Of a DNA stretch of 64,000 nt, positions 6,331 through 57,100 are shown piece after piece. The stretch comes from a candidate division FCPU426 bacterium (GTDB taxonomy: Bacteria; Oederibacteriota; JAAXVQ01; JAUVAV01): the NCBI GenBank assembly GCA_040756875.1, contig JBFLYH010000002.1, forward strand, positions 981,246-1,045,245, written 5' to 3'. Positions within the stretch are counted from its first letter, which is position 1. Each line of letters starts with the position of its first letter. The notes beneath the pieces are model-generated. The model did no database searches, was not told the DNA's origin, and worked only from the letters and a program-made list of their open reading frames with translations. The translations under genes were made by a program, and so were the position numbers.

Positions 6331-7079
6331 AACCCAGCGCCCTGATCTGTTTGTTGTGGCTGGCGCCGGGCCTGGTTTGGGCCGCGGCTGCGACCGATCC
6401 CGCGGCCGCAGCGCGCGCGGCTTATGACGCCGGCAATTACGTTCAGGCGGCGGAAGAATACCGGGCGCTGGAAGGGCGTGGTTTCGGGAGTGCGGCCCTG
6501 TATTACGACTGGGGCAACGCCGAATACAAGGCCGGGCATCTGGGCCGCGCCATTGCCCTTTACCGCCGGGCCGAGAAGCTTGGGCCGTGGGACGAGGATG
6601 TGCGCTTCAATCTGGATTACGCCCGCAAGCAGGTCAAGCGGCCCGAGGATCCCAACGGCCCGCTCACCCGCTGGTTGTTGTCCGTTTACCGGAGTCTGCC
6701 CGGCCCGACCCTGCTGGCCGCAGCCTGGGCCATCTACCTGCTGTTGTCGGCCCTGGCGGCGGTCTTGATCGTGCGCCGCGGCCAGGGCGCGCTCTGGCGC
6801 TGGCTGGCCCTGGCTGCCACTGGTTTATTCCTGATCGCCGCCGGCTGGGCCTCCCTGCGGCTGCTCGATGAGAAACAGGCTGCCATTGGGGTGATTGTCA
6901 CCAACCAGGCCGAGGCCCGCAACGGCCCGGCCGCGGACTTCGACGTGGGCTTCAAGATTCCCGAAGGCCGTGAAGTGCGCGTCTTGGGGCACGAGGCCGG
7001 CTGGGTGGCCGTGGGCCTGGCGCCCGAGGGGTATAAGGGCTGGGTCAAATCCGAAGATATTTGGGAAGACGGGGAATGA
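6327..7079 (+). CDS. batE: BatE-like TPR/SH3b-domain protein
   Basis: ATGA overlap with batD stop; signal peptide, TPR-like repeats (AAYDAGNYVQAAEEY..), TM, C-terminal SH3b-like segment (GWVAVG..GYKGWVKSEDI). Confidence 0.6.
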   Translation: MKPSALICLLWLAPGLVWAAAATDPAAAARAAYDAGNYVQAAEEYRALEGRGFGSAALYYDWGNAEYKAGHLGRAIALYRRAEKLGPWDEDVRFNLDYARKQVKRPEDPNGPLTRWLLSVYRSLPGPTLLAAAWAIYLLLSALAAVLIVRRGQGALWRWLALAATGLFLIAAGWASLRLLDEKQAAIGVIVTNQAEARNGPAADFDVGFKIPEGREVRVLGHEAGWVAVGLAPEGYKGWVKSEDIWEDGE

Positions 7080-7633
7080 ACCGACCAGACTGGCCGAACC
7101 CTTATCGGTTGCTCGCGCATCCTGCTTTCATCCTGGCTTCGGCCGCGCTGATGGTCATTGCTTACAGTTGCATGACCCACGGCTTCGCCCGCCATGCCCT
7201 GGATCACATCCTGGCCTTTCAGCTCTCCTTCACCCCCGCCCGGGCGCTGCGGGCGATTGCGGAGTGGGGCCTGCCGGGCGTCCAGGCGTATATGGCCAGC
7301 ATGTGGCTGGATTTTATTTTTCCGCTGGGCTACGGGCTGTTCATTTCGGGCCTGTTGGCCAGGACGCTGATCCGCGGCGGCGAACAAGCGAATGCCCGCA
7401 CCCTGCGGCTGGCGGCGCTGCCCTGGACGGCCGTGGGCTGCGATTACCTGGAAAACGTGCTGCACCTGTGGATGCTTTCCCGCGGCTGGCCCAGCGAGTG
7501 GCTGCCCCTGCTCGCGGCTTCCATAGCCGCGGCCATCAAGTGGGGGATCATGGCTTTCGTGATCCTGGCCCTGCTCGCCACCTGGGGCCGGCGGCTGATT
7601 GAGCGTTTTTTCCCTATGGCCTCCCGTCCCTGA
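7076..7633 (+). CDS. hypothetical integral membrane protein
   Basis: ATGA-coupled to batE; 185 aa with several hydrophobic helices. Confidence 0.5.
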   Translation: MNRPDWPNPYRLLAHPAFILASAALMVIAYSCMTHGFARHALDHILAFQLSFTPARALRAIAEWGLPGVQAYMASMWLDFIFPLGYGLFISGLLARTLIRGGEQANARTLRLAALPWTAVGCDYLENVLHLWMLSRGWPSEWLPLLAASIAAAIKWGIMAFVILALLATWGRRLIERFFPMASRP

Positions 7634-9495: not shown

Positions 9496-10743
9496 ATGTC
9501 CAAGCTGACGTACACCCCGCCTGCCTCCGGCGAAACGATCGCCTGGCAGGACGGGCGCCTGCAGGTGCCGGACCGGCCCATCGTCGCTTTCGTCGAGGGC
9601 GACGGCATCGGCCCGGACATCTGGCGCGCCAGCCGGCAGGTGCTGGACGCGGCCGTGGAAGCCGTATACCAGGGCCGGCGGCGGATCCACTGGCTGGAAG
9701 TACTGTGCGGCGAGAAAGCCGTGGCCGCCGGCCATTCCGCGCTGCCCGAGGAAACCCTGGAAGCCATCCGCCGCTACCGCGTGGCCATCAAGGGGCCGCT
9801 GACCACTCCGGTCGGAGGCGGGTTCCGTTCCCTCAACGTCAGCCTGCGCCAGCTGCTCGACCTCTACGCCTGCGTGCGGCCGGTGCGTTACTACGCCGGC
9901 ACCCCGGCGCCGGTGAAACAGCCCGAAAAACTCGACGTGGTGATCTTCCGCGAGAACACCGAGGACGTGTACGCCGGCCTCGAATGGCCCAGCAACAGCC
10001 CCGAGGCGCGCAAGCTCGCGGCCTTTGTCACCGCTGAGCTCAAGCAGCCCGTGGCCGGGGACGCGGGCCTGGGCTTGAAGCCCATGACCCGCGCCAACAC
10101 CCAGCGCCTGGTGCGGGCCGCGATACAATTCGCCCTGGACCACGGCCGGCCTTCGGTCACCCTGGTGCACAAGGGCAACATCATGAAATACACCGAAGGC
10201 GCGTTCCGCGACTGGGGCTACGAAGTGGCGGCCGCGGAATTCGCCGGCCGCGCGGTGACGGAAAAAGACCTGGCCGAAAAACACGGCGGCAAAGCCCCGG
10301 CCGGCTGCGTGGTGATCAAGGACCGGATCGCGGACGCCATGTTCCAGCAGGTGCTGCTGCGGCCGGACGAATACTCGGTGCTCGCCACGCCCAACCTCAA
10401 CGGCGATTACCTCTCCGACGCCTGCGCCGCCCAGGTGGGCGGCCTGGGCATGGCCCCGGGCGCGAATCTCGGCGACGGCCTGGCCGTGTTCGAAGCCACG
10501 CACGGCACGGCGCCCAAGTACGCGGGCCAGGACAAAGTCAACCCCGGTTCGCTGATCCTTTCCGGCGTCATGCTGTTGGAGCATTTGGGGTGGGTGGAGG
10601 CGGCCCGCGCGATTCAACAGGCGCTGGAGCGCACGATCCTCTCGGGCGTGGTAACCTATGATCTGGCCCGGCAGATGCCCAAAAGCCGCGAGGTCAAGTG
10701 CAGCGCCTTTGCGGCCGAGATCGTTTCCCATTTGTCCGCCTGA
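9496..10743 (+). CDS. icd: isocitrate dehydrogenase (NADP-dependent)
   Basis: 415-aa ORF with typical IDH N-terminus and conserved blocks (NLNGDYLSD). Confidence 0.85.
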
Positions 10744-16194: not shown

Positions 16195-16229
16195 AACCGG
16201 AGGGGGCCCTGCTCCCTCCGGTTTTTTAT
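16195..16229 (+). terminator. Rho-independent terminator (GC stem + T6)
   Basis: CCGGAGGGGG / CCCTCCGG stem then TTTTTTATT at 16221-16229. Confidence 0.7.
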
Positions 16230-16344: not shown

Positions 16345-17930
<1,586 letters not shown>

Positions 17931-29645: not shown

Positions 29646-29702
29646 AGCAGACAGCAGCAAGGTGAAAGGGCAGCCACTGCGTTCACCTTGCTGCTGTCTG
29701 CT
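29646..29702. repeat. 21-bp perfect inverted repeat with 15-nt loop
   Basis: AGCAGACAGCAGCAAGGTGAA (29646-29666) / TTCACCTTGCTGCTGTCTGCT (29682-29702); direct repeat AGCAGACAG also at 29625. Confidence 0.8.
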
Positions 29703-30212: not shown

Positions 30213-32618
30213 GTGACCGGTATTTTCGTGTGGTGGTTGTTGATCACAATCATGGGGCTGGCTGTTGTCCCGATCGCGTTCCGGGTTTTTCCGTTTCTTC
30301 CTGACCGGGGATATGCGTTTTCCAAACCCTTGGGGCTGGTGCTGGTCGGGCTGCTGACCTGGTGGATCGGGCAGGTGCATTTTTCAGTCCTTACCATTCT
30401 CCTGGCATTCGGGCTGATCGCCGGCCTGTCGTATTGGCTGTGGGTCCGCTCGGCCGCGGAGTTCCGTTCCCTGCTGTCCGAGCGGCTCGGGTTGATCGTG
30501 GCGGTGGAACTGTTTTTCGCGGTTCTCTTCCTCCTTTTCTGCTGGTTCCGCATGTACAACCCGGACATCATCGGCACCGAAAAATTCATGGACCTGGCGT
30601 TTCTCAATTCGCTCTCCCGCGCCACGTCGTTTCCGCCGCCGGACCCGTGGATGGCCGGCTCGAAATTTTTCATCAGCTACTATTATTTCGGCTACCTGCT
30701 CATGGCCATTCTGCTCCGCCTGTCGGCCGTGGCGCCGGCCGTGGGCTTCAATCTTTCCCTGGGCATGCTGTTCGCGCTCGCCGGGATCAGCACGTTCGGC
30801 GTGCTGTACAACCTCACGCGGCGCCTGAGCGCGGGCTTTGGCGGCTGGGCGCTGATCTACCTGATCGGCAATCTCGACGGGTTCAGGCAGGTGCTCGCCA
30901 CCAAAAGCATCGCCAGCTTCAACTGGTGGACGCCGTCGCGCGTCATCCCCGACACCATCAACGAGTTTCCGTTTTTCTCCTTTCTCCTCGGGGACATGCA
31001 TCCGCACATGCTGTCCATCCCCGTGGTCATGCTGACCCTGGGGTTCACGCTGAACCAGCTCAAATCCATGAACCGCGAGCCGAACTTCCGCGAGCCGGAG
31101 CAGCTTGCGACTACGCTGCTCTGGGGCCTGCTGATCGGGGCGCTGGGGTTCGCCAACAGCTGGGACCTGCCCACCACCTTCGGGCTGGCAGGGGCGGCGT
31201 TTCTGCTGCAGCAGTTGCGTTTCAAGCCGCGCCTGGCTGACCTGCCCTGGCGGCAGTGGGGGCTGGGCCTGGCGCTGATGCTGGGCGCCATGTTCGTGCC
31301 GTACCTGCCCTTTTATTTCCACTTCCACAGCCAGGCCAAAGGCCTTGCCTGGACCACGCAGAACACCCGGTTGGGGGATTTTCTGCTCCTCTTCGGCGTG
31401 TTCGCCTATCTCGGCCTGACCTTTCTCCTGGCCCGATACCATGCCTGGTTTTTGGCCGTGCTGTCCCGTCCGCAGGCCGCCTCCGGGGAAGGCAAGGCCG
31501 CCAAAGCCAAAGCCAGCCGTTTCTGCCCGCAGTGCGGGCATACGCTGCGCGAAGGCAAGCGCATTTGCGGCCAATGCGGGTACCAGACGGCGGGCGGAGG
31601 GTCTGAACAGGAATCTTCGCTCCTGTTGCGGCCCGTGGAAGAAACGCCGGAATGGCTGCGCGGGCTGTTCCTGTTCCTGCTGCAGCCCGTGGCGCGCTGG
31701 CGCCAGGGCCGGGGCGCGGCCCTGATCACAGCCGGCGTGCTCGCGGCGGCGGTCGGCGGCGCGCTGGTGAAAGGCCTCTTTTTCTCCACGCCGGGCAATC
31801 CCGCGCCCGTGTTCCTCGGCATCATGATTTTCGCGCTGGCGGCCGCCACCCTGCTGCTGTTCGCCCGCGTGGACAAGCCGGAGACAGTGTTCGCCCTGCT
31901 GCTGCTGGCCACGGCCCTGGCGCTGTTCATGGGCTGTGAAGTGCTGCATATCAACGACACCTTCAATCCGCCGCTGGACAGGATGAACACGGTTTTCAAG
32001 TTTTACTACCAGGCCTGGTTCCTGCTGGGCATCGCCGGCGTCTACGGCGTTTTCTGGACCTGGAAGTATTCGCTGCGCCACGCGAACCTCAAGGTGGTCT
32101 GGCTGTCGGGCCTGGCCCTGCTGCTGGCCGCGAGCCTGGTTTATCCTTACGCGGCCGCGGGCGTCAAGACCAACCGGTTTGCCACCCTCCCGACCCTGGA
32201 CGGCTCGGCATACCTGAATCAGGCGTACCCGGCCGACCGCGCGGGCATCGAATGGCTGCGCCGTTCGGTGGCCGGCAATCCCGTGGTGCTGGAAGCCACG
32301 GGCGGCGAATATACGGATTTTGCCCGCGTGTCCACGTTCACGGGCCTGCCCACGGTCCTGGGCTGGGCCGGCCACGAACTGCAGTGGCGCGGGAACTACG
32401 ACGAACCCGGCCGGCGGATTCCGGACATCGACACGCTCTACGGCTCTTCGGACGTGGCGGCCACTCAGGCCCTGCTGGACAAATACCAGATTACTTACGT
32501 TTTTGTCGGCACCCTGGAGCGGCAAAAATACCCGGAAGAAGCGCTGGCGAAATTCACCCAGTTGATGGACGTGGCGTTCGAACACCCCGGCGGCGTGCGG
32601 ATCTACCGCCGGCGGTGA
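30213..32618 (+). CDS. YYY-motif polytopic membrane protein (DUF2298 / TIGR03662-like) with inserted zinc ribbon
   Basis: GTG start; 801 aa; FISYYYFGYLL motif; CPQCG...CGQCG insertion; many TM helices. Confidence 0.65.
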   Translation: MTGIFVWWLLITIMGLAVVPIAFRVFPFLPDRGYAFSKPLGLVLVGLLTWWIGQVHFSVLTILLAFGLIAGLSYWLWVRSAAEFRSLLSERLGLIVAVELFFAVLFLLFCWFRMYNPDIIGTEKFMDLAFLNSLSRATSFPPPDPWMAGSKFFISYYYFGYLLMAILLRLSAVAPAVGFNLSLGMLFALAGISTFGVLYNLTRRLSAGFGGWALIYLIGNLDGFRQVLATKSIASFNWWTPSRVIPDTINEFPFFSFLLGDMHPHMLSIPVVMLTLGFTLNQLKSMNREPNFREPEQLATTLLWGLLIGALGFANSWDLPTTFGLAGAAFLLQQLRFKPRLADLPWRQWGLGLALMLGAMFVPYLPFYFHFHSQAKGLAWTTQNTRLGDFLLLFGVFAYLGLTFLLARYHAWFLAVLSRPQAASGEGKAAKAKASRFCPQCGHTLREGKRICGQCGYQTAGGGSEQESSLLLRPVEETPEWLRGLFLFLLQPVARWRQGRGAALITAGVLAAAVGGALVKGLFFSTPGNPAPVFLGIMIFALAAATLLLFARVDKPETVFALLLLATALALFMGCEVLHINDTFNPPLDRMNTVFKFYYQAWFLLGIAGVYGVFWTWKYSLRHANLKVVWLSGLALLLAASLVYPYAAAGVKTNRFATLPTLDGSAYLNQAYPADRAGIEWLRRSVAGNPVVLEATGGEYTDFARVSTFTGLPTVLGWAGHELQWRGNYDEPGRRIPDIDTLYGSSDVAATQALLDKYQITYVFVGTLERQKYPEEALAKFTQLMDVAFEHPGGVRIYRRR

Positions 32619-32702
32619 TCGCTGTGTATTGCCCCGGTGAGGAGCTCTCCGGGGTGACGTTGCCGGAACGACAAATTGAGTGAATATCGAAGGAGGCTCG
32701 GC

Positions 32703-34691
32703 GTGAACTGCCCGAACTGCGGCGCGGAAAACCCCGCCACCAACCTGTTCTGCGACTCGTGCGGGACCAAGCTGGTCAAACGAGACGCAGAAAAGCAGAA
32801 GAAAAAGCACATTCCCGAAGGGAGGGGCGTTCAGGTGAACACCCCTGCTCAAACCAAATCCTACCTGCCGGCCGAACCCGTAAAGCCGGCGTTGTCCCTG
32901 ACCGCCGTTCCGCTCGAAACCCTGGCCTGGGCCGTGGTCTTCGCGGTGGGCGCCTGGCTGCTGTTTTTCCAACTGGGCATGAAGCCCCTCCACCACGACG
33001 AGAGCCTGCACGCCTATTACGCCTGGGAGCTGTTCAAGGGCATGGGCTACAAGTACAACCCCATGATGCACGGCCCCTTCCTGTTCCACGCCAATGCCCT
33101 CATGTATTTCCTGTTCGGCGCCTCGGATTACACCTGCCGCATCATGCCCGCGCTCGCGGGCCTGACGGTGCTGGTGGTCACGTACTTCCTGCGCCCCTAT
33201 CTGGGCCGGACCGGCGCCCTGTTCACGGCGGCCATCATCGCCCTGTCGCCGTCCTTTACGTACTTCGGCCGGTTCATCCGCAACGACATTTACATTGCCG
33301 CGGATTCCATGCTCATGATTTACGGTTTTTTCCGCTATCTGGACACGCGCAAGCCCCGCTTTCTCTACCTGGCCGCCGTCGGCCTGGGCCTGGCGTTTTG
33401 CACCAAGGAAGTCACCTACATCAACGGCGCGATTTTCGTGACGTTCATGTTTTTCCGCTGGCTGTGGGAGTACACCATGCGCCCCGGCGCGGGCGAGAGC
33501 CGCTTCCTGCCGGCGCTGCAGGACCTGCTTAAACAGAGGAAGCCGCTGTGGGTTTCAGCCGGCATATTCTTCGGCCTGGTGCTCGTGCTCTACACCACCG
33601 TGTTCACCAACCCCAAGGGCTTCCTGGACGCGTTCACCGCTTCGCTGACCTATTGGCTGGGGCAGCACGAGGTGCAGCGCGGCAGCCAGCCGGTCTACTT
33701 CTACGCCGGGTTGATCCCCCTGTACGAAACCCTGACCACCCTGGGCGCGATCGGCGCCCTGGTTTACTACAGCTTCCTCAAGGACCGGGCCCACCGCGTC
33801 TGGCGCCTGTCCGCCTACCTGATCCTGGCCGCGGCCTGGTGGCTGTTCGCCTCGCAGGGCAACGAGACCTTCGGCCTGATATTCTCGCTGCTGCTCGTCA
33901 CGCTGGGCGTGGGTATGCTGGCGTATTTTTCGTTCGCCGAGGGCAATACGTTCGTCACGTTCCTGCAGTTGTGGACCCTGGCGGCTTTTTCGGATTATTC
34001 CTTCGCGGGCGAGCGCATGCCCTGGCTGATCCTCCACCCCCTGCTGCCCATGACGCTTTTGACCGGGTTTTGGCTGGGGGAACTGTGGAACCGCTTCCAG
34101 CGCCAGCGGGCCTGGCTGCTCGCCGTCTTTACCGCGGGCGCCGTGCTCATGCTGCACAACGCCAGCCTGGTGAACTTCTACGGCGGCGGGGCGAACCCCG
34201 CGGAGCTCCTGGTGTACGTGCAGTCCTCGACCGACGTCAAGCAGGTGGTGCGGCAGCTCACCAATATGTCCAAGCGCCTGACCGGCGGGCTGGAGATGAA
34301 GATCACCTGCGAGGATTACTGCTCCTGGCCTTTCGCCTGGTACCTGCGCGATTTCAAGTTCGTGGGGTATCCCAAGTTTACGGCCACCCAGTCGCCGGGC
34401 TCGATCGAGGAAAACCCCGTGATCATCACCGGCGTGGAAATGGCCGCGCCCGGGCACGATGACCGCGTGGCCGAGCTCCTGGCGGAGAAGTACGTGGCCC
34501 AGCGCTACAAATTGCGCGTGTGGTGGGCCCCGGACAGCCGCGCGTTTTTTGACGACACCTTCGGCGGAAAACTGAAGAAGATCTGGAAATTGGTGGTGTA
34601 CAAGGAGCCGTGGAGCGGGCTCGGGTCCTACGACATGATCGTGTACGTGCGCAAGGACCTGGCCCATTTGTACTGGAGCCACGCGGAGTAA
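32703..34691 (+). CDS. TIGR03663-like membrane protein (PMT/ArnT-like GT-C N-terminus) with N-terminal zinc ribbon
   Basis: Start moved to GTG 32703 (AGGAGG SD 6 nt upstream); CPNCG...CDSCG; DE dipeptide (HHDESLH) and HGP tripeptide (MMHGPFLFH). Confidence 0.6.
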   Translation: MNCPNCGAENPATNLFCDSCGTKLVKRDAEKQKKKHIPEGRGVQVNTPAQTKSYLPAEPVKPALSLTAVPLETLAWAVVFAVGAWLLFFQLGMKPLHHDESLHAYYAWELFKGMGYKYNPMMHGPFLFHANALMYFLFGASDYTCRIMPALAGLTVLVVTYFLRPYLGRTGALFTAAIIALSPSFTYFGRFIRNDIYIAADSMLMIYGFFRYLDTRKPRFLYLAAVGLGLAFCTKEVTYINGAIFVTFMFFRWLWEYTMRPGAGESRFLPALQDLLKQRKPLWVSAGIFFGLVLVLYTTVFTNPKGFLDAFTASLTYWLGQHEVQRGSQPVYFYAGLIPLYETLTTLGAIGALVYYSFLKDRAHRVWRLSAYLILAAAWWLFASQGNETFGLIFSLLLVTLGVGMLAYFSFAEGNTFVTFLQLWTLAAFSDYSFAGERMPWLILHPLLPMTLLTGFWLGELWNRFQRQRAWLLAVFTAGAVLMLHNASLVNFYGGGANPAELLVYVQSSTDVKQVVRQLTNMSKRLTGGLEMKITCEDYCSWPFAWYLRDFKFVGYPKFTATQSPGSIEENPVIITGVEMAAPGHDDRVAELLAEKYVAQRYKLRVWWAPDSRAFFDDTFGGKLKKIWKLVVYKEPWSGLGSYDMIVYVRKDLAHLYWSHAE

Positions 34692-34698
34692 AACGACA

Positions 34699-34722
34699 CC
34701 CTCCCCTTTGAGGGGGAGGGGG
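34699..34722. repeat. CCCTCCCC/GGGGAGGG palindrome
   Basis: CCCTCCCC-TTTGA-GGGGGAGGGGG directly after the stop at 34691. Confidence 0.6.
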
Positions 34723-34747
34723 AAAAATAAAGACGGAGGAAAGAAAC

Positions 34748-35704
34748 ATGCGTCAGCAGGAAAAAGTTGCGGCGATTGTGTTGGGTGCCAGCGTCGTGGT
34801 TTTGGCGGTCGCCATTTTCTTCGGTTTGCAGCGCGGCCGCGACGGCAACGCCAAACCCGGCGGCCAGGCCAACCCCATGGCCGGCGGCGACCGGGGCAAG
34901 GCGTCCGGGCAGTTGTGGGACCCGCGCGGTGTGGCCGTGGACGCCAAGGGCTTCGTGTACGTGGTGGATTCGAGCAACCACCGCATCCAGAAGTTCGACG
35001 CCGAAGGCAAGTTCGTGGCCAAGTGGGGGCAGGAAGGGCAGGGCGACGGCGAGTTCAAGACGCCGGGCGGCATCGACGTGGGGCCGGACGGGAACGTGTA
35101 CGTGGCGGACACCTGGAACCACCGGATACAAAAGTTCGACAACCGGGGCAAGTTCCTCAAGCAGTGGCCGGGCGAGGGCGGGTTCTGGGGGCCGCGTGAC
35201 GTAGCCGTGGATTCCAAAGGCTTCGTGTACGTGACGGACACGGGCAACCGCCGCATCCAGAAGTTCACCGGCGACGGCCAGTTCGTCAAGATGTGGGGGC
35301 AGAAAGGCTCGGGCCCCAACGACTACGACGAGCCCTTCGGCATTAAAGCCGACGACAAGGATTTGCTGTATATCTGCGACCGCCTCAATTTCCGCATTCA
35401 GGTCTGCGACACCGAGGGGCGCCTGGTCCGTTCCTGGCCCGTGGACGGCTGGCAGAAGGAACAGTTCTTCATGGAGCCCTACCTCTCCATCGACAACCGC
35501 CGCGACCGGGTGTACGTGACCGACCCGACCAAGCACCGCGTGCTGGTGTACGACCGCCAGGGCGGATTCAAGCAGCACCTGCTGCAGGACCCGGCCACCC
35601 AGCAGGCGTTTTCCACGCCCCTGGGCGTGGCGGTGAACGAGGAAACCGGCATGATTTATATCACGGATATGACGGCCAACCGGCTGTATAAAATCCAGCC
35701 TTAG
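34748..35704 (+). CDS. NHL-repeat beta-propeller protein, N-terminal membrane anchor
   Basis: Repeated blocks GVAVDxxGxVYVxDxxNHRIQKF; N-terminal TM helix. Confidence 0.75.
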   Translation: MRQQEKVAAIVLGASVVVLAVAIFFGLQRGRDGNAKPGGQANPMAGGDRGKASGQLWDPRGVAVDAKGFVYVVDSSNHRIQKFDAEGKFVAKWGQEGQGDGEFKTPGGIDVGPDGNVYVADTWNHRIQKFDNRGKFLKQWPGEGGFWGPRDVAVDSKGFVYVTDTGNRRIQKFTGDGQFVKMWGQKGSGPNDYDEPFGIKADDKDLLYICDRLNFRIQVCDTEGRLVRSWPVDGWQKEQFFMEPYLSIDNRRDRVYVTDPTKHRVLVYDRQGGFKQHLLQDPATQQAFSTPLGVAVNEETGMIYITDMTANRLYKIQP

Positions 35705-48059: not shown

Positions 48060-48136
48060 GACTGCCAAGCTCAAGGTAGGGGCGTTCAATTGAACGCCCC
48101 TACAAAACGAAAACCCACCGAAAGGAAGAAACATCC

Positions 48137-50878
48137 ATGTCCCGCGTTTCCTGGGGCGCCCTTAGCCTGGGCGCCCTTTTCCTGATCGGCCAGGTGGTGA
48201 TACTGGCCGGAAATCCGCCGCTGGGAGGCGCTGCCAGCCTCCTGGCCGTGGCGCTCAGCCTCGGCTGGTGGCTGAAGCGTTCCGGCAAGCCCATTGCGCC
48301 CTGGGTCGCGGTGGCGGCCCTGGGCTGTGCGGCCTGGGCCCAGGCCCTGGTGAAAGCCGAGCCCAAGGACGCGCTGTGGCTGTTTATTTTGTCCGGCCTG
48401 CTGCTTTTTTTGGCCAAGCCCGCCGGGCTTGGCTGGAAAGAGGACGGCGCCGTGCCGTCCGGGCGAGCGCCCCTGGAAAAATGGGAACCCTGGTTTGTGC
48501 TGGGGTTGCTGGGGCTGGCAATAGTGACGCGCTTCGTACCGATCAACGGTTTTCCCTTTGGGTCCATCGCCGAGGAAGCCCAGCACGTGCCCGTGCTCGA
48601 GGGCGCCATGGCCAGCCAGGTTTACGTGCCGCATTTCACGCACGGCAATATGGGCACACCCACCCTGATGAGCTACCTCGGCGCGGCCGCGTCCCGCGTT
48701 TTTGGCCGGCACATCAACAGCTACCGCATGGGCGTGGAGTTGTTCAGCGTCTTTTCCATCCTGGCCTTCTATTTCACAGCCCGGCGGGCAAGTTCGCCTT
48801 TCACGGCCGCGGTCACCAGCATCCTCTATTCGGTCTCCCTCTTGCACCTCACGCTCTCGCGGCGTTTTTATCCCTACATCGTGATTTTTTTACCCGTGGT
48901 CCTGGGCTGGGGGCTGTGGCTGGAGGGGCTGGCGCGCAGGCGCTGGTACTGGTTTTTCCTGGCCGGCCTGGCCGCGGGATTCAGCCTGCACGGCTATGAA
49001 CCGGGCCGGGGTGTGTTTCTGATCTTTTTAGCCTGGGCTGCCTGGATGTGGCTGGCCCACCGCCCCCGCCGGATGGTGAAGGGACTCACCCCAGGGGACT
49101 CCCTGCAGCCGGCTTCGCCTGGCCCCGCCCTGCCCTCTGGCCGGGACTTCGCCCTGTTTTGGGTGGGGTTCCTCATAGTCGCCGGTCCGATTTTTTATCA
49201 TATGAGCGTGCATTGGGACAATTACTGGCACTATGTGGCCAGCAAGAACCCCAACCGCACGCAAACACTGGCTGCGTATGTCAAGCAGGTGTGGTCCTTG
49301 GTCGGCGTTTATGCGCACTTGTTCCAGGTTAAGAGCGACGGCAATTACACGATGTACACCACCTACCAGCCCCTGCTTGACCCAGTGACCAGCGCCCTGT
49401 TCGGGCTGAGCTTCTTTTTCGTGCTGGCCCGCGCCTGGCAGCCCATGCCTTCCTTTGTCCTGCTGTTCTTTTTCGCCGGCCTGGCGCCTGCGCTGATCGG
49501 CGGCGGGGAGGAGCATCCGACCGCCCGCCGCACCTGCCTGGCCACCCCGGCCATCTATCTCATCATAGCCTTGGGCCTGGAGCGCCTGCGGCTGCTTTTC
49601 CGTCAGGGCCTGCCGTCCTGGGGGCGCAGGATCTTGCTGGCCGCGGCTGTTTTCCTGACCGCGGGCGTGGCCGCCTATTCGCTGCATTACTACTTCTTCG
49701 TGTTCGGCGACTCGCCCGAGGCGCGGACCGGGTATTGCTGGCGCGGCTTGAAGATCGCCCAGGCCCTGGACGCCCATCCCAAGGCGTACAGCCGGCTGCA
49801 ACCCCTGTTGTATCACGAACAGATTTGGGTGCTGGCCAAGCACCCCGGACAACCCGGGCTAGTGCCCACCCAGGAGGACCTGCTGGTGCTGGCGCCTGAC
49901 CAGGACCAGCAGCTCTTTTTGGAAGGCTACATGGAGCCGACCCTGCCGTTTTGGCGCTCCCAATTTCCCAACGCGCAGGTCACCGTTTACCGGGAGAAAT
50001 ATCCGGACCGGCCCTTTTGCGAGACCTGGCCGTACTTCAAACTGGGCACGGATCCCAACAATCCGGCCACGTACTTGATCCAGATCAACATTCCCAGGCA
50101 GGACGTGGCGTTTTTCCAAATGCTGGTGGACGCCACCACCGGACAGCACCTGCCGGTCTGGAATCCCGAGTTCGGAGCCGGACTGGTTCCCGGCCAGCGC
50201 CTGCGCCTGGCCGGCGCGGTGGTCACCCATCCTGGAGCGGTTTATTCCTGGAAACTGGGCTGGCTTGGCTGGCAAATAACCGTGGACAAAAAACCCGCGG
50301 AGTGGAGCCAAGACATCCCTCTGGACCAGGGCGTGCACTATTTCGAAATTTCCGGGCCGGTTCCTGCCGGCTGCGAGGGTCCGCTGCCCCTGGTGGTGCT
50401 GGAAAACGGCCGCAATGTGCAGCGCCTGGGGAGCGTGGTGGGGTTGCCCGCCAGGCAGGGCATGCTGGCCGAATACCGCAACAGTCCCAGCCGCTGGGAC
50501 GGGCCGGCTGAGGTTACCAGCCAAAAGCTATTCGGCCAGGAGCGATTCTACAGCGTACCTCCGGGCTTTGGGCTGCCGTTGTCGGCGATTTACCGCTGCC
50601 GGCTGCAGGTGCCCGAGGACGGCGAGTATTCTTTCGAGACCAAGCATTTTTCGCGCTGCCGGCTGCTGCTCGACGGCCGCGAAGCTTTCAATAACTTCAA
50701 CAATGTACAGGCGCCCGTGATCACGCCCATGGCCCTCGCCGCCGGCAAGCCGGTTGCGCTTGAAGCCCAGTTCATCGTCGAGGGCGAAACCCTGACCATG
50801 ACTTTTCAGCTTTTTTACCGCCGTCCGGGCCAAAAACAGGCGCAATGGGTGCCCATGGAGTGGCTCCGGTTGCCTTGA
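48137..50878 (+). CDS. large GT-C-like membrane protein with C-terminal PA14-like domain
   Basis: 913 aa; polytopic; acidic loop motif SIAEEAQHV; C-terminal beta-sandwich-like region (YRCRLQVPEDGEYSFE...LLLDGREAF). Confidence 0.5.
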   Translation: MSRVSWGALSLGALFLIGQVVILAGNPPLGGAASLLAVALSLGWWLKRSGKPIAPWVAVAALGCAAWAQALVKAEPKDALWLFILSGLLLFLAKPAGLGWKEDGAVPSGRAPLEKWEPWFVLGLLGLAIVTRFVPINGFPFGSIAEEAQHVPVLEGAMASQVYVPHFTHGNMGTPTLMSYLGAAASRVFGRHINSYRMGVELFSVFSILAFYFTARRASSPFTAAVTSILYSVSLLHLTLSRRFYPYIVIFLPVVLGWGLWLEGLARRRWYWFFLAGLAAGFSLHGYEPGRGVFLIFLAWAAWMWLAHRPRRMVKGLTPGDSLQPASPGPALPSGRDFALFWVGFLIVAGPIFYHMSVHWDNYWHYVASKNPNRTQTLAAYVKQVWSLVGVYAHLFQVKSDGNYTMYTTYQPLLDPVTSALFGLSFFFVLARAWQPMPSFVLLFFFAGLAPALIGGGEEHPTARRTCLATPAIYLIIALGLERLRLLFRQGLPSWGRRILLAAAVFLTAGVAAYSLHYYFFVFGDSPEARTGYCWRGLKIAQALDAHPKAYSRLQPLLYHEQIWVLAKHPGQPGLVPTQEDLLVLAPDQDQQLFLEGYMEPTLPFWRSQFPNAQVTVYREKYPDRPFCETWPYFKLGTDPNNPATYLIQINIPRQDVAFFQMLVDATTGQHLPVWNPEFGAGLVPGQRLRLAGAVVTHPGAVYSWKLGWLGWQITVDKKPAEWSQDIPLDQGVHYFEISGPVPAGCEGPLPLVVLENGRNVQRLGSVVGLPARQGMLAEYRNSPSRWDGPAEVTSQKLFGQERFYSVPPGFGLPLSAIYRCRLQVPEDGEYSFETKHFSRCRLLLDGREAFNNFNNVQAPVITPMALAAGKPVALEAQFIVEGETLTMTFQLFYRRPGQKQAQWVPMEWLRLP

Positions 50879-51019
50879 CGATGAAAGACACCCCTCCCCA
50901 GGCATTATGGTGGGAGGGGTTAGAGGAGGAGAGTAACTGATGAAAATGGATATGCTCAAATTTAATTATGCATGGAAAATTTGGGCAACCCGGTCTAAAT
51001 AAGCAGGAAGATAATCATT

Positions 51020-51128
51020 CCCCCTCGCCCCGCGGGAGCGGGGAGAGGGTGGGGTGAGGGGTACAACTAATAAATCTGGGGATGACCCTCACCCTAGCCC
51101 TCTCCCTATTAGTAAGCAGGGAGAGGGG
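51020..51128. repeat. composite G/C palindromic element (CCCTCxCCC / GGGxGAGGG family)
   Basis: Hairpin CCCCGC-GGGA-GCGGGG; GGGAGAGGG (51040-51048) and GGGTGAGGG (51052-51060) mirrored by CCCTCACCC (51086-51094) and CCCTCTCCC (51098-51106); another GGGAGAGGGG at 51119-51128. Confidence 0.7.
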
Positions 51129-51156
51129 AAGCGTTGTCTAAGATCCGGGAGATGGC

Positions 51157-54100
51157 ATGGTACTGCGCAAGCGGCAAAGCTCCATAACCCTGTTGCTTTC
51201 CTTATTATTAGTCATACCGCCCGGTACGCTGCAAGCCAAGAGCCAGCCCGAACCAACCGAGCCTTCCACCCGCCCTGAGCGCCTGACTCCCGAAATCGTC
51301 GTCCTGGTGCCGGATGTGCTGGATTCGGCCAAGACCTTAGCCAATGCCAGGCAGCGGTTGATCAAACGCGGCTTGAAATCCCGGGACGTGGTCGTGACCG
51401 CTGAACAGCCGGGGTTCAGTCGTTCGGGCGGGTTGGACCAGCAGGCGCGGCAGCTGGAAAAAATCCTGATTGATCTGAAAATCCGTCAGCCAAGCGCACG
51501 GTTGCACGTGGTCGGCAAGGGCAGCGGCGGCTTGGTGGTCCGGCAGTACCTGGCGAGGCAGGCGGGCCTCGGGCCACAGGCAGTGACCGTGGAAAGCGCG
51601 GTCGGCTTGGGCGTGCCGCACCACGGCCGCTGGTGGGCGGGCGTGGCCAGCAGCCTGGGCGCCAAGTCGCAGGCCCTGGCTGACCTGGCGCCGGGTTCTG
51701 CGTTTTTAAACCAGCTTAACCAGCCCATTGAAGCGCGCCGGGCCGAGGTCAGGCGCGTGCAGGGTGTGCTGGCCAGCCTGCGCCAGCCGAACCTGCGGGC
51801 CCAGGTCCGGGGCAAACTGTCAGCCATTGAAAGCCAGCAGGCGGACATACGCGAATCCGTGGAGCGGGCTCTGCACTTTCCACAGCGCGCCGCTTTGAGT
51901 CCTGATGACCAGAAACGCCGCCAGGAAGCGGAACGGTTCAAGGCGAAACTCAACCGCCTTCCGGCCGCGGAAGCGCGGCACCAAGCCGCGTCCCTGGCCG
52001 CTGCCAGCCAGCGCCAGGTTCTGGCCGCGGAAAAATTCGCAGGACAATCCCTCCCTTGGCAGGCGCCGGCCCGGCAATCAACCCGTACGGCCGAAGAGGC
52101 CCTGGTTCGCGCCCAACAAACCCTGCTGGAAAAACTGTCCCAGCCCCAGGCCAAGTTGCCGGCCGGATTCCAGCCGCCGAAGACCCAAGCCCAGCCAGGG
52201 CAATGGCTTTCCGTTTTGCAGGCCCTGGAGCACAGCAGCCAGGCTGCGGCTGAAAAAGCCGCCAGCCAGGCTGGCGGCCTGCAAAAACAATTCGCGTCCC
52301 TGGATTTCGAAGGGCTCGAAGCCCGTTTAAAAAACGCCGGCACGGAGGCAGCGGGGCGCCTGCCTGCCGACTTGCTGCAACTCAAGCCCCAGCACATGGC
52401 CAGGGACCTGGAGCGCGCCGCGCGCAAATATGAAACCGCGGCTGCGTTGGAAGCTGCCTGGCGGCAGAGCCAGGCCGGCAAAGAGCAGTGGCTCGATCAA
52501 GTGGAGCGGTTGACCCAGGTCGCGGCCAAACAGCAACTGGCCCGGGACCTGGCGGCGTACGCCGCAAAGGCCGGACTTGCGCCGGCCCGGCTGCGCGCCG
52601 GGGCGGCTGAGGCAGGGGATTTGCCCGAGCGCGCCCAGGCCGCGTACCGCGCGTGGCGCCAGAAGGAAGCCGCCCTGGACCAGGCTTTTGCCGCGGCCAA
52701 GGAACAGGGGTTGGAAACAATCGTCAAACCCGAGTTTTGGAAACTGCGCGAGCGGACGGCCCAGGTGGCTGAGCGCACCCACCAGGCGATTGCGCGCGAC
52801 AGCCTAAAAGCCTGGGAAGGACTGGCAGCCCTGCGCCTGGGGCCCGCGGCCAAGGAACAGGCCATGTTCGCCCAGGCCACTGAGCACCGCCTTAACCGCG
52901 AACTGGCAGCCTGGAAGCAGGAACTGCTGAAGCCGGATTGGGAAGCGCGCTTTTCGCAGGCTGCCTCGGCCCTGAACCGCAGCCTGCCGGCGGCAGAACA
53001 GGCCGGAGCCTTGAAGCAGGCTTTAGTACAGCAGGCAGGCGCTTTGCAGTCGGCTTTGGCCGCTGTTCGTTCCGACCTGGCGGCGCGTGAGCGGCAAAGC
53101 GCCTGGGAGCGGTTGGCAGCTGACAGCCGACAGGCAGCTGCGCAGTTGCTGCAGCAACAAGCGGATCATGGCTTCGTGGCCGACGCCCTGGCTGCCGGCA
53201 ATTTCCTGGCCGCCGGCAGAAAACAGGAACAGCAACGCCTGCTGGACCTGGTCAGGCAGAATGATCCGGCTGCCAGCCGTCAGGTGGCGGTGCTGGCCCA
53301 ATTGGCGCTTCAGCGCCACGGGCTGCAGTCCAGGCTGCTGGAGACCGGCGGCCTGGATGCAGGGCCTGCCCCGCAGTTGCTGGAGCGGATCGCCGGGCAA
53401 GCCAAGGCCCTGGGGCTGAAGACCGCCCTGCCACCCAAAGCAATGGAGCACCTGGCCCAGGCCCAGGAGGAGCGGCAAAACCGCTGGAAACAACTGAACA
53501 CCAGCTGGAAGCGGCAGTGGTCGCAGGCTGTCCAGGAGGACCGCGAACGCAACCAGCCGGCCAAAGCCTGGTCAGCCTGCCAGGAGACAGTTGCCGTCAG
53601 CCGCAGCCTGGCTGTGCTGGAAGACTGCTCGGCCGCGCTTTCGCAAATGAAATCCTGGCGGGATATGGGAACCCAAGCCTCGGGCCAGCAAGGCCGCTGC
53701 CAGGTCCTGGAGCAGCAGTTGTCCGCTTGGCTGCAAACGTCCGGACTTGGCAGCCGGATCCCGGCCGTGCAATCAGCCGCAGCCGCGGCCCAGGAAAAAT
53801 TTGCGCCCGCGGCCTGGCAAGCCATTCTCAGCCAGTGCGGCCAGAAGCAGGAACAGGCAAGCGCCAGACTGCAAAACTTGAGGCGCGAACTGGCCAGGCA
53901 GCCTGAATGGATTTTGCCGCAAGTCGCCGGAGTGTCGGAACAGCTGGCTCAGGCAGCCCAGGACCCCAGCCGGATCAAGGGCTTGTTGCTCGAAATTTCC
54001 GGCTTGCGCGAGCAAACCCAAAAACACCTGACACAGGCGCGGGAACAAACCCTGGAGGCGCTCTGGCCCGGACAGGGCAAGGGGAAAGCTTCGGCCCTGG

Positions 54101-57100
54101 GCCAGGAGTTGAATCAAGTTTTATCCAGCCTGCAGGACTACCGCCAGTTGAGCCGGATGAATGCCCAGGCTGATACCCTGCAAGACCTGCTGTCAGCGAA
54201 AGCGCTGTTGTGGCAGCAACAGAATCTGCAAGCCCAAGGGCTCGGAGCGGTCAAGACCCTCGAATCCCTGCTCGCCCAAACAGCCGGAATCCCGGGCAAA
54301 CCCTCCGGGCAAGTCTTCAGCCAGATCACCGCCACCCTGAGCCTGATGCAAAAGCTGACTGCCAACCAGATGCAATCCGCGGGATTGCTGCCAGGCCTTA
54401 TGGATCGGGAGTGCGGGATGCCGGCCAAAGCCGCGCTCCAAAAAGAATGGAGAGCCTGGCTGGACGGGCAGTTTTCCGCCCAGCAAGGCTTGGATTGGGC
54501 CGGCGGGCAGCTTCAATTAAGCACAGTGCTGTCAAACCCAGGGGCAGGCTGGCGGCAACAGACCAACGCCCTGGCCACTGGCATGCTGGAGAATCTGGTG
54601 GACCAGGCGGCTGAGCGCCAGATCAGCCTGGGCCTGGCTGAAGTGCAGCGCTTGAGCAACGAGGCGCGGGAACTGCTTTCAGCGCCTGTGCGCCAATTGC
54701 GCGCCGAACTGGGGCAATTGGGGCTGTTGGACCCAAGGCAGGATCAGGGGCCGGGCCTGAGTATCGTGTCCTGGGCGCAGCATTTCGTGCAGCAGGGCGT
54801 GGCCCAGGGCGTGGCGCAGGCCCTGGCCAGCCTGGAGCGGACGCAGGCCCAGTTCAGCAACCGCCTGGAGCGGGGCCTGCTGGAACTCGCGCGCGCCCAG
54901 GCCACCATGGCGATCAATGCCCTGAGCGGCCAATACGCGGGCCTGGCCGTTGAGGTGAAGCGCCTGTGGGAGGGCGTTGGGCCTGAGGCCGGCGAAGCGT
55001 TGAACCTGCAGGGATTGCTGAACGTGGCCCAGGACCAGGAGTTTCTGCAAACCTGGCAGGAAGATATCTTCAGCAAACTGGTGGCGGAGAATCCCTTGCA
55101 GGCTGACCTGGGACGGCTGGGCCAGGTTGCCTCCTCGCTTCAGGCTTTGATCGACCAGCCGGCCAGCCAGCTCGGCGACTGGCTGGTGAGGAGCGGAGTG
55201 AACCTGGGCGTGGAGCGGCTGCAGTCCCTGCAGGCCGAAGCCCAGAAGCTGCTGCACGAGGCTATGACCACGGGCGCGGTCAACGAGCTGCGGACGCGCC
55301 TGAATGCCGTTCTGCTCAAGTTGGACCAGGAAGCAGGCCGCTTGAGCCGTTATCTGGACCAGACCCTGGCCAAGCTTCCGTCCGGAGTGGTTCCCGCGGG
55401 CTTGCGGGACGCGCTGCGGGAATTGCGCGACCTGCCCGGCACCCTGGCTGCCGGGATCGACGGCCTCATGCAGGACGTGGAGAGTTACCTTGCCAACCAG
55501 GTGCTGCAGTCCGGATTTGACCGCCTGAACGCCATGCTCAACCAGTACGGCGGACAGGCGTCCTTGTGGGCCGTGGGCGCCAGGCTGCAATTGTCGCTGA
55601 CCGAGATTTCCAGCCTGGGCCAAACCGCGGTGGCGCAGTTGGAAGTGTCCCTCGCGGATCTGGGGACCGGAAATCTGACCGGTTTGTGGGAAAACGTGGC
55701 AGCCGGGCTCTCGGATTTCGGCGGGAACCTTCTGAACCTGCTGCAGGATTTCGTGGCTAGCGCGAGCCCGGTGGATTTGGGCGGGTTTCTCAACATCACG
55801 GGCCTGGCTGATTCGCTGTGGGCCTCGGCCGGCGAAGTGCTGGGGCAATTCACGGGCCTGTTCGAGCTACAGGTGCCAATGGCCGGCGATTGGTGGCAGG
55901 CAGACGAGCTGTGGCAGCAGTTGTCCGGCATTTTCAATGCGGAGAACTGGCAGCTTGATTTCTATCAGGCTGCGGACGGGTTCCTGCGCAATATCAGCGA
56001 AAACCTGGAAAACCTGCTCAACTCGGGTCTGGCCTGGGTGAACGACCGCTGGACAGAATACATGAACCAGGCGCGGGAATACTGGGACATCCTGGCCGGC
56101 GGGCCTGGCCGGTGGTGGGATGAACTGGCCAGCGGCCGCTGGGACCAGAGCCTGGGCAACCTGATGACGCAATACCTGCCGCCTGAATACCAGCCTGCTG
56201 TGAGCGCCCTGCAGCAGGTGCGCCTGGCGTTCAACGCGGACTTTCAGCTGAGCGCGGAGTGGATTACGAACATTTTGGACAACTTAAGCGCCTACCTGAG
56301 CGAGGACGCGCGGGCCGTGTACCAGCAGGTGCGCGAGTTATATGATACGGGCAGCGAATATTATTCCGCTGGCAGCGACATCCTCAACGCCATTTCGAGC
56401 GGGGATGTCACCAGCGTGCTGACCAACATCAGCCGCCTGGGCAGGTTTCATTTCAACACCGGCGGACAGATGTACCAGTGGGGCAAAGGCCGGGCCAATA
56501 AAAAAGGGAAGTACGACGGCCAGGCCCTGTCGGCTGCCAGCGAGGAAGAAGTGCTGGCAGCGTACGTCAATGCCCTCCCAGCCAGCATGCGCGAACAGGC
56601 CCTGCGGATGCTGGAAAACGGAACCCTGCCCGGCAGTAATCCCGAACGCGAAATCGACGTCGCGGACTACGACCCGGACGTGGACGGCCAGCCAGCTGGC
56701 CCGGCAGCCTATGAAGCCGCCCAGGAAGCTGACGCGTCTGCCACTTTGCCAGATGTAGCAGCCGCATCCGCTTCGGATCGTCACCCCGGCGTGCCTGAAG
56801 CCGGGGTCCAGGAGCAAACTCCCCCCCGCAGGTCCCCCTCTTTGCCAAAGAGGGGGCGGGGGGAGTTGGATAGTGGCTTAGGCGGGAACGACAGTCAAGG
56901 CTCAACAACCGATGAGGGTGATGCTTCTGCTGCCGGCACCCAGCCAGGCGGTGAAGGCGAATCCGGCCCCCCAGACCTCGGCCCGCCGCGCATGTCCGGC
57001 GTGCCCACCCCGCCGCCTGTAAAGCAGAGCTTGTTGGATAAGATGAAAAATGTATACACCAACCTAAATCCAGTTGGATTATCCAAGAACGCCGCCCAGG

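Follow-up and report, generated by a model that had tools for sequence, protein, structure and literature searches.

CCCTC/GAGGG palindromes beside and inside a giant gene of a candidate division FCPU426 bacterium are copies of a bacteria-wide class of three-block triplex motifs

Introduction

BoxC elements of Escherichia coli, also called PIT or TMECO, were reportedly described by Bachellier in 1999 and by Hoyne and Maher in 2000 and 2002, and Rickettsia palindromic elements (RPEs) reportedly by Ogata in 2000. BoxC/PIT elements have been known since the 1990s without an established function or means of spread. The E. coli pattern is CCCTCNCCC N3-6 GGGNGAGGG N3 GGGNGAGGG (Holder et al. 2015, PMC4666352). 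The purine strand of its hairpin can accept the third block in a purine-motif triplex, and the TMECO sequence adopted a triplex in vitro as judged by circular dichroism (CD) and nuclear magnetic resonance (NMR). The elements are always intergenic in E. coli, five inverted A+B pairs are present in K-12, and rearrangement is more frequent at TMECO sites than at control sites (PMC4666352). A motif in Actinobacillus pleuropneumoniae marks the borders of low-GC capsule loci, where recombination between copies has been proposed (PMC6008488). In-frame fusion of small repeats to genes is known for RPE, ERIC and others (PMC2229807). Here we describe CCCTC/GAGGG palindromes in a 64,000-nucleotide stretch of DNA from a candidate division FCPU426 bacterium (the window, to which all positions refer unless another locus is named). 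They lie past stop codons, upstream of a giant gene and within it. The palindromes are real and far above chance, and they are copies of a known bacteria-wide class of three-block triplex motifs, the E. coli BoxC type.

Results

CCCTC/GAGGG hairpins in the window

Six hairpin loci with CCCTC in a C-rich 5' arm were found in the window, at 34699, 50890, 51022, 51098, 56834 and 60058. A one-mismatch scan returned 34697-34722, 50889-50921, 51022-51049, 51097-51128, 56833-56857 and 60058-60087, with no seventh locus. A preliminary description of this DNA had listed related G/C palindromes at 34699, 51020-51128 and 56834, at gene boundaries and inside the giant gene. All three read as described and are non-random, their coordinates confirm the placement, and a perfect-hairpin scan adds 50890-50920 and 60058-60087 as further members. 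The stems are perfect in five of the six hairpins. The pyrimidine (C-rich) arm precedes the purine arm in all six, which is a genuine asymmetry because a perfect palindrome is identical on both strands. Five of the six lie within 9.2 kb (50889-60087, 14% of the window) around the toxin locus described below, a clustering that was seen post hoc.

Perfect hairpins of at least 8 bp with a CCCTC 5' arm occur at five loci, compared with a mean of 0.13 and a maximum of 1 in 60 dinucleotide shuffles made in 2-kb blocks. The pattern proposed in the preliminary description, CCCTCYCC..GGRGAGGG, has two matches in the window against 0.02 expected, above the expectation from GC content. A class II intrastrand triplex motif (ITxF-type) consists of a pyrimidine block, its Watson-Crick purine block and a mirror purine block, the mirror rule being G opposite G and A or T opposite A, with a stem length of 8 or more, no more than one mismatch and short loops. 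Such motifs are present at 56833-56868 (plus strand, 0 mismatches), 56819-56856 (minus strand, 1 mismatch), 51022-51056 and 51086-51128. The hairpins at 34699 and 50890 fall outside this definition, and 60057-60104, which has one mismatch, falls within it only when loop 2 may be 9 nt long. A three-block scan of the window (stems of 8, no more than a single mismatch in each interaction, 3-16 nt for loop 1 and 0-6 nt for loop 2) gave four strand-specific matches at two sites against 0.105 expected, and none of 200 shuffles reached four. The elements that were folded as DNA had z-scores of -4.9, -4.75 and -6.0, the last value belonging to the pair upstream of the giant gene. A scan of the whole window with Rfam at gathering thresholds returned no family. 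The presence of the mirror third block at two sites makes these BoxC/PIT/TMECO-type triplex motifs, and the six CCCTC-type hairpins are neither a single REP family nor classical terminators.

The pair upstream of the giant gene

The giant gene (51157-57936, plus strand) encodes a 2259-aa polymorphic toxin with a high-GC trunk, a linker and a low-GC lipase-like (AHSQG) C-terminal module. Two triplex motifs lie upstream of it, head to head on opposite strands with a 24-nt spacer. Copy 1 (51022-51061, plus strand) is CCCTCGCCCC gcgggagc GGGGAGAGGG t GGGGTGAGGGG, and copy 2 (51086-51127, minus strand), in its minus-strand reading, is CCCTCTCCC tgcttactaata GGGAGAGGG cta GGGTGAGGG. The pair is intergenic, as the preceding gene ends at 50878, the giant gene starts at 51157 and copy 2 ends 30 nt before the ATG. 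Comparison with Table 1 of PMC4666352 identifies the blocks of copy 1 as those of E. coli TMECO copy #3 (type 'B mm'), down to its characteristic G mismatch, and the blocks of copy 2 as those of type A, copy #17. Block sequences known from E. coli thus recur unchanged in an uncultivated candidate phylum.

Both copies carry CCCTCNCCC, GGGNGAGGG and GGGNGAGGG in order on one strand. The strict published TMECO pattern has 0 matches in the window because loop 1 is 10 nt and 12 nt long in the two copies; the second loop measures 2 nt in copy 1, and in copy 2 it is the 3-nt CTA. With relaxed loops the pattern matches both upstream sites and nothing else in the window. The orthologous locus L002, which encodes a 55%-identical giant protein, has no counterpart of the pair. 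A separate non-coding block 5' of the giant gene, ATGnATGGAAAATnnGGnCAnnCCGGTCTAAA (50950-51003), is conserved at L002 ~9590-9640; a 20-codon open reading frame (ORF) with a good ribosome-binding site (50940-51002) overlaps this block and is not conserved in L002.

Each upstream copy also contains four G-runs of at least 3 with 1-3-nt loops, for example GGGGAGAGGGTGGGGTGAGGGG, and conforms to the G-quadruplex motif (1-7-nt spacing). The elements might on this ground be G-quadruplex or i-motif sequences instead of triplex motifs. Two G-runs are all that the intragenic variant and most variants of the family (AAAGAGGGG..GGGGAGATT) contain, what is conserved across variants is that block 3 mirrors block 2 and that block 1 is complementary, and CD and NMR gave a triplex for TMECO (PMC4666352). 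The quadruplex explanation is very improbable.

The triplex-motif family across phyla

A hairpin-only scan for CCCCTCTTTNNNAAAGAGGGG, with one genome per species, returned at least 120 stretches. The matches listed include Acinetobacter, Pasteurellaceae, Methylococcaceae, Nitrospirota, Thermodesulfobacteriota, Patescibacteria, Elusimicrobia, Omnitrophota, Planctomycetales, Dehalococcoidia and others. The query held the hairpin of one variant only, and GGGGAGATT(T) stands 2-4 nt downstream, or its complement upstream, in nearly all copies listed.

The matches listed cover 120 loci of many phyla (848 kb) and contain 234 pyrimidine-first 9-bp hairpins, which formed the basis of a mirror-block census. 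A perfect 9/9 mirror of the hairpin's own purine arm was present in a flanking block in 81% of the 234 hairpins, compared with 8% in a control in which the purine arm was swapped with the arm of a different hairpin. The position of the A shifts in step through all three blocks in seven variants, which pair purine arm and mirror block as AAAGAGGGG with GGGGAGATT, AAAGGGGGA with AGGGGGATT, AAAGGGAGG with GGAGGGATT, AAGAGGGGG with GGGGGAGTT (the intragenic type of the window), AAAGGGGGG with GGGGGGATT, GGGAGAGGG with GGGTGAGGG and AAAGGAGGG with GGGAGGATT. This three-way covariation is expected of a triplex-type constraint and is not predicted by a plain hairpin, a terminator or a G-quadruplex. 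A mirror block that tracks its own purine block through seven variants is the signature of a three-stranded fold, not of a hairpin. The orientation of the copies relative to the nearest gene is unbiased (47 vs 39 at 3' ends and 38 vs 26 at 5' ends), as in the E. coli literature, which supports a DNA-level or selfish nature.

About 10% of the family copies are intragenic by a crude ORF criterion. In a gammaproteobacterial PolX the encoded TTPPQSPSLSKRGKGELKPYEDPT forms a 22-aa insert between the polymerase and PHP parts relative to the Thermus structure 3au2, and in a Pol I from Patescibacteria the elements lie in an unaligned linker after the 5'-nuclease domain. Copies within long ORFs were also found in Saccharibacteria, Planctomycetales, Elusimicrobia and Nitrospirae. 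The in-frame copies are located at ~7100-7200 of locus L070, at ~1440-1520 and 3149 of L101, at six sites of L115, and in L061, L052 and L118. Recurrent peptides of in-frame copies are SPSLxKRGxGE[LF] and PPFxKGGxGG. No description of an in-frame coding fusion of this triplex-motif class was found in the available literature.

The intragenic palindrome

A four-block palindrome inside the giant gene (56819-56868) is a triplex motif on both strands and reads AACTCCCCCC gcaggt CCCCCTCTTT gcc AAAGAGGGGG c GGGGGGAGTT. The 56834-56856 core, CCCCCTCTTT gcc AAAGAGGGGG, is the centre of this larger palindrome. The element is a sister variant of the triplex motif, CCCCCTCTT / AAGAGGGGG / GGGGGAGTT, in which GGGGGAGTT mirrors AAGAGGGGG with T opposite A. 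It has the three-block architecture seen in the upstream pair, with mirror blocks at either side.

A hypothetical protein from the metagenome-assembled genome of a candidate division FCPU426 bacterium is identical to the giant protein. The only full-length homolog of the giant protein is P0002 (55% identity, locus L002), which aligns on both sides of the intragenic element and shares the C-terminal domain. Conserved CAGCAAAC and TGGATA enclose 47 nt in the window (56820-56866) and 5 nt (ATCGC) in L002. The net gain over this ortholog is 42 nt, or 14 codons, and the frame is kept; the 14 codons include SPSLPKRGRGEL and are translated within ...QTPPRRSPSLPKRGRGELDS.... The triplex palindrome is also in frame in L127 (DRHPGMPEAGVQERTPPGSPSLPKRGRGELDS), a contig that carries the end of a second homolog, and the ORF is uninterrupted in both the window and L127. 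The same motif variant is intergenic at three places in the genome of L002, namely L002 6436-6468, L002 25594-25626 and L112.

The element is nested in a second repeat. A cGTCA-arm-loop-arm-CCAG hairpin, tcGTCACCCCGGC gtgcctgaa GCCGGGGTCCAGga, lies in the giant gene (56779-56812, plus strand), 8 nt 5' of the triplex palindrome, and has its ortholog at L002 15339-15366 and in L127 at 54-78. The second half of this inverted doublet is decayed in the window (56867-56892, minus strand; TGGATAGTGGCTTAGGCGGGAACGAC, peptide LDSGLGGND) and intact and inverted at L002 15390-15417 (ctggATACCGGCttacGCCGGTATgacg), 26 nt beyond the first. The triplex element therefore occupies the spacer of an older REPIN-like doublet. 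Arms co-vary in the GTCA..CCAG family, which has copies in several phyla, including Nitrospirae, Nitrospinota, Methylotuvimicrobium and Dehalococcoidia loci, and in the intergenic DNA of L002, also at 19745, 19831, 23651 and 23938. Judged from these alignments, the intragenic copy appears to be a lineage-specific 47-nt in-frame insertion into the spacer of the older hairpin doublet.

The DNA of the element is conserved. Between the window and L127, identity is 46% in the 46 nt before the repeats, 90% in the GTCA hairpin plus triplex element, 60% from the element to the pre-toxin junction and 88% in the junction. The repeat DNA, at 90% versus 46-60% for the linker, has thus been kept far better than the surrounding peptide-coding linker, in two proteins that end in different toxins. 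This conservation is compatible with selection on the DNA, with intrastrand correction of palindromes or with recent spread.

The toxin module, the pre-toxin junction and the composition break

Polymorphic toxins have conserved pre-toxin junctions, such as VENN of CdiA and PxxxxDPxGL of Rhs, and leave orphan toxin-immunity modules. The giant gene has a junction of this kind at 56974-57015 (plus strand), GACCTCGGCCCGCCGCGCATGTCCGGCGTGCCCACCCCGCCG (DLGPPRMSGVPTPP). Similarity between the window and L127 extends as far as GACCTCGGCCCGCC.CGCATG..CGGCGTGCCCACCCCGCCG (56974-57015), beyond which the two are unrelated. L127 (1-4265) contains, in order, the end of the giant-gene homolog with its GTCA hairpin and in-frame triplex palindrome, a different C-terminal domain, a small lipoprotein gene (immunity-like), a 332-aa Y1 transposase and an orphan lipase-like module preceded by ~70 nt of the junction. 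A stand-alone relative of the toxin domain on this contig, P0123 (61% identity), begins with MSGVPTPP, which corresponds to the ATG at 56992. The end of homology to L127 at the junction and the orphan module identify the giant gene as a polymorphic toxin gene and the break as a module boundary. Homologs of the immunity-like lipoprotein of L127 lie just past the window end (L001 19512-19859) and at L002 19164-19550.

The last 330 residues have AHSQG in a strand-helix pattern and 192 relatives in a representative library. The domain stands at the extreme C-terminus of 600-3500-residue proteins in most long matches, and in others it stands alone at ~300 residues. Searches of the C-terminal domain against PDB, Pfam and NCBIfam gave no match, and the trunk and the junction motif DLGPPRMSGVPTPP match no Pfam family. 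Some proteins ending in the domain read as YD-repeat/Rhs by sequence reading alone. An AlphaFold2 model of the last 610 residues had a mean predicted local distance difference test score (pLDDT) of 38, too low for a fold search, and rendered the linker as coil. The linker of the giant gene is poorly conserved and of low complexity.

The preliminary description placed the intragenic palindrome at the composition break, which the coordinates do not bear out. The element ends at 56868, and GC and third-position GC (GC3) drop only after ~57020, past the junction that begins ~105 nt downstream of the palindrome. GC3 falls from 0.77 to 0.39 at this point, and the corresponding fall in L002 is from 0.83 to 0.31. 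The palindrome is not the cause of the break because the L002 ortholog has the same break without it; the break is due to the swappable low-GC toxin module. Low GC3 (0.39 and 0.31) is kept in the toxin module and the next two genes in both genomes, which share just 55% of their protein sequence and have GC3 of ~0.8 elsewhere; the regions of retained composition are window 57020-64000, L001 to ~18000 and L002 15600-17000.

GC is 62-70% up to ~57 kb and breaks within a single ORF, features that might suggest that the palindromes arose by chance in a GC-rich genome or are an artefact of assembly at the break. The shuffle tests contradict chance. Chimeric assembly at the GC break is ruled out by an identical independent Logan contig (L001, 100% identical to the window over 15.9 kb across the break and extending past the window), by an ORF that runs 900 nt into the low-GC DNA and by the break in L002. 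GC returns to ~62% some 2 kb beyond the window end in L001. We reject both forms of this explanation, which has practically no chance of being correct. A 21-nt long-range inverted repeat (51733-51753 / 56971-56991) was dismissed as chance since it is not conserved in L002.

The position of the palindrome raises the question of an adaptive fragile site, in which the intragenic palindrome and the adjacent hairpins would stimulate homologous recombination and toxin-module switching at the junction. The palindrome lies ~105 nt upstream of the point at which identity between the window and L127 drops from 88% to no similarity, and L127 keeps the displaced module. The best argument for an aid to recombination is that two lineages whose toxins differ share the element at 90% identity, between flanks of 46-60%. 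The same motif stands at the borders of the low-GC capsule loci of A. pleuropneumoniae (PMC6008488), TMECO sites are more rearranged (PMC4666352), and five of the six members in the window surround the toxin locus at 50.9-60.1 kb. L002, however, has the junction and the GC break without the triplex motif, and the peptide of the intragenic element occurs in none of ~150 other proteins with this toxin domain. The case consists of one locus, and its proximity and clustering were noticed post hoc. An adaptive fragile site is unlikely. The recombination hotspots suggested in the preliminary description fit the published link to rearrangement and the junction ~105 nt away and are plausible; a role of triplex elements in recombination is unproven.

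Two-block hairpins after stop codons

The three remaining hairpins have two blocks. The first (34699-34720) reads CCCTCCCC tttgag GGGGAGGG, without a third block or T-run, and stands 8 nt past the stop of a TIGR03663-like gene (32676-34691) and 28 nt before an NHL-repeat gene (34748). It is kept in the 87%-identical relative L123 as CCCTCCCC tcgc GGGAGGGG; no covariation could be obtained because this relative, the only one with the hairpin, has the same stem. Orthologous spacers at 67-70% identity have unrelated palindromes in its place, one of them GTAG-headed and REP-like. The second hairpin (50890-50920), ACCCCTCCC caggcattatggt GGGAGGGGT, lies 12 nt past the stop of a PMT_2/PA14 gene (48137-50878), and its stem and loop are conserved at L002 9516-9544. 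In L002 the hairpin precedes an imperfect third block, GGGGCGGG; the window reads AGAGGAGGAGA at this position. The third (60058-60104, plus strand) consists of ATTCCCCTCC tgtccagcag GGAGGGGAAT (60058-60087) and, after a 9-nt loop, a weak third block AAGGGAAG with 1 mismatch; it is located 8 nt past the stop of a small gene (59457-60050) within the low-GC island. The fold z-scores of these three simple hairpins are modest (-0.85 to -2.5). We read them as partial or decayed relatives because paired motifs often decay to plain hairpins (Holder et al., PMC4666352).

Their location 8-12 nt past the stops of same-strand genes is what transcript-level signals would predict, whether T-less intrinsic terminators, attenuators or 3' stem-loops that protect against exonucleases. 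Some stem-loop is present in all five orthologous TIGR03663-NHL spacers, with differing sequences, and the 50890 hairpin, loop included, is conserved at 55% protein divergence. The preliminary description had proposed terminators, a proposal that fails at the sequence level. No T-run follows the hairpins, which are succeeded by ggaaaaataaag, tagaggaggaga, gaagcgttgtct, cggggggagttg and gtagaagaaagg, and a terminator scan of 48-64 kb lists none of them; ordinary T-run terminators do occur in the window, at 16195-16223 and 16390-16419. PIT elements are cited as lacking both promoter and terminator activity in E. coli, and RNA does not form purine-motif triplexes (PMC4666352). Termination between the TIGR03663 and NHL genes is unlikely because the two are fused in other phyla. 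The fold z-scores of several hairpins are weak, the family has no orientation bias, and a transcript-level signal leaves the mirror block and the intragenic copy unexplained. As an account of the whole set, transcript signalling is rather unlikely, and a 3' stem-loop role of the three simple hairpins is possible.

The TIGR03663-type (Agl23-like) and NHL-repeat genes (32676-35704) are separate here and form a single fused protein in Chloroflexi homologs, an arrangement that suggests that their products may work together.

REP-like and other repeats

One alternative is that the CCCTC elements are REP/REPIN sequences mobilized by a REP-associated tyrosine transposase (RAYT). They are short, GC-rich, palindromic and near gene ends, and the linker of the giant gene holds the REPIN-like inverted doublet of the GTCA..CCAG family. 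The 332-aa Y1 transposase of L127, beside the orphan toxin module, matches the NCBIfam model 'REP-associated tyrosine transposase' with 68 bits (E = 6e-19), a score below the curated 80-bit cut-off. The CCCTC elements lack a GTAG-type head, the six copies differ in sequence and arms, and the mirror third block at two sites is foreign to REPs. A tblastn search found no RAYT homolog in the window (64 kb of the 1.13-Mb contig) or in L001, L002, L112 and L123-L126 (~130 kb of related loci). Better substrates for the L127 transposase, if there are any here, are the GTAG-headed palindrome at 48076-48103 or the GTCA..CCAG family. A REP/REPIN origin of the CCCTC elements is quite unlikely. The term REP-like used in the preliminary description holds in the loose sense of repeat elements and not in the strict sense, given the missing GTAG head, the lack of a near-identical consensus and the absence of a RAYT from the window.

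The GTAG-headed, REP-like palindrome at 48076-48103, GTAGGGGCGTTC aatt GAACGCCCCTAC, lies just 5' of the PMT_2/PA14 gene and is conserved at L002 6727-6750; a similar GTAGGGGCGCGA...TCGCGCTCCTAC is found in the TIGR03663-NHL spacer of L124 (11958-12004). The longest perfect inverted repeat of the window (29646-29702; 21 bp, 15-nt spacer) is situated between a minus-strand gene that ends at 29621 and a plus-strand gene that starts at 30213; it is a possible operator. The intergenic DNA of L002 contains the repeat-like sequences GTCATTGCGAGG... and ...TCGCTCGCAATGAC at 6490-6720 and 9660-9700, which may resemble another widespread repeat.

Discussion

The CCCTC/GAGGG elements are probably, though by no means certainly, selfish, structure-forming triplex-motif DNA that is tolerated in spacers and disordered linkers. 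They would be active at the level of DNA rather than of the transcript. Opening of the duplex during replication, transcription or repair would allow an element to fold into a hairpin or triplex, and the folded element might stall polymerases and raise local rearrangement. The step from structure to instability is inferred because the TMECO triplex was not detected in vivo. Elements would persist where the harm is small, in intergenic spacers and disordered protein linkers. The two-block hairpins past stop codons would be partial or decayed relatives that serve as 3' stem-loops at most.

Several points weigh against this interpretation. DMS (dimethyl sulfate) footprinting detected no TMECO triplex in vivo (PMC4666352). 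The elements have no known spreading mechanism, and no target-site duplication or transposase is linked to them. The 90% conservation in a fast-evolving linker could reflect selection for function, not selfish persistence. The kinship of the simple hairpins with triplex motifs consists only of composition, pyrimidine-first asymmetry and two weak third blocks. A metagenome scan for further orthologs of the giant gene found none. Three lineages are therefore the whole basis for the direction of the insertion, and with them an insertion on the window/L127 branch is formally inseparable from a deletion in L002.

The element class itself is known. New are the covariation of three blocks across phyla together with the coding insertions, the variant form and the host phylum, and, at this locus, a copy that is in frame, conserved as DNA and nested in another repeat in a pre-toxin linker. 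Triplex-class elements can thus be coding in frame, in well-known enzymes included. For annotation, peptides such as SPSLxKRGxGE or PPFxKGG in proteins or spurious ORFs should be treated as repeat-derived. The copy conserved at the DNA level in a fast-evolving linker beside a toxin-exchange junction is a concrete place to test a role in recombination. A bolder proposal is that triplex repeats are a bacteria-wide self-propagating class that recurrently enters protein linkers, with the same ~14-residue peptide (..PSLxKRGxGE[LF]..) turning up as a result in unrelated proteins such as PolX, Pol I and the toxin, and that the conserved palindrome, nested here in an older hairpin doublet, is a built-in fragile site that raises recombination at the adjacent junction and drives toxin-module switching. 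We regard it as speculative and unlikely.

Among known systems, pre-toxin junctions of the CdiA/Rhs type resemble the context of the palindrome only. Sequence upstream of and including 56974-57015 is shared, the toxin downstream is unrelated, the orphan module retains the junction, and proteins that look like YD-repeat/Rhs, again by sequence reading alone, likewise have the toxin domain at their end; the junction motif DLGPPRMSGVPTPP and the trunk are outside Pfam. REP, BIME and REPIN elements share short GC-rich palindromes at gene ends, inverted doublets as in the linker and a RAYT-like gene as in L127. They differ in that the six copies in the window have no GTAG head or consensus and no RAYT, and in that a mirror block is present.

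RPEs, according to PMC2229807, are otherwise intergenic palindromic repeats that stand in frame in genes and encode a short peptide in a tolerant region, as does the intragenic element here. Unrelated conserved genes likewise contain the triplex repeat, namely those of PolX, Pol I and the giant toxin, a comparison of behavior and not of homology. The triplex element is 35-50 nt long compared with 105-170 nt for RPEs, has no terminal inverted repeats of the MITE type, has its own mirror third block and is spread across phyla, not within one genus.

The A. pleuropneumoniae motif, CCCCTCTTT nnn AAAGAGGGG nn GGGGAGATT, has the same architecture as the intragenic CCCCCTCTT / AAGAGGGGG / GGGGGAGTT and almost identical blocks, and both are near the border of a low-GC, horizontally exchanged segment. 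The copy in the window differs in being translated in frame with mirror blocks on both sides. The authors of that study read their motif as a possible terminator or insertion-border repeat (PMC6008488).

The BoxC/PIT/TMECO elements differ from the window pair in loop 1 (3-6 nt, compared with 10 and 12 nt), in loop 2 of copy 1 (3 nt, compared with 2 nt) and in host, which is candidate division FCPU426 and not Proteobacteria, with a low copy number here. The blocks of the upstream pair are identical to theirs, CCCTCGCCCC/GGGGAGAGGG/GGGGTGAGGGG with the same G mismatch and CCCTCTCCC/GGGAGAGGG/GGGTGAGGG, and the pair is intergenic, head-to-head and composed of a B-like and an A-like copy, as are the five pairs of E. 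coli.

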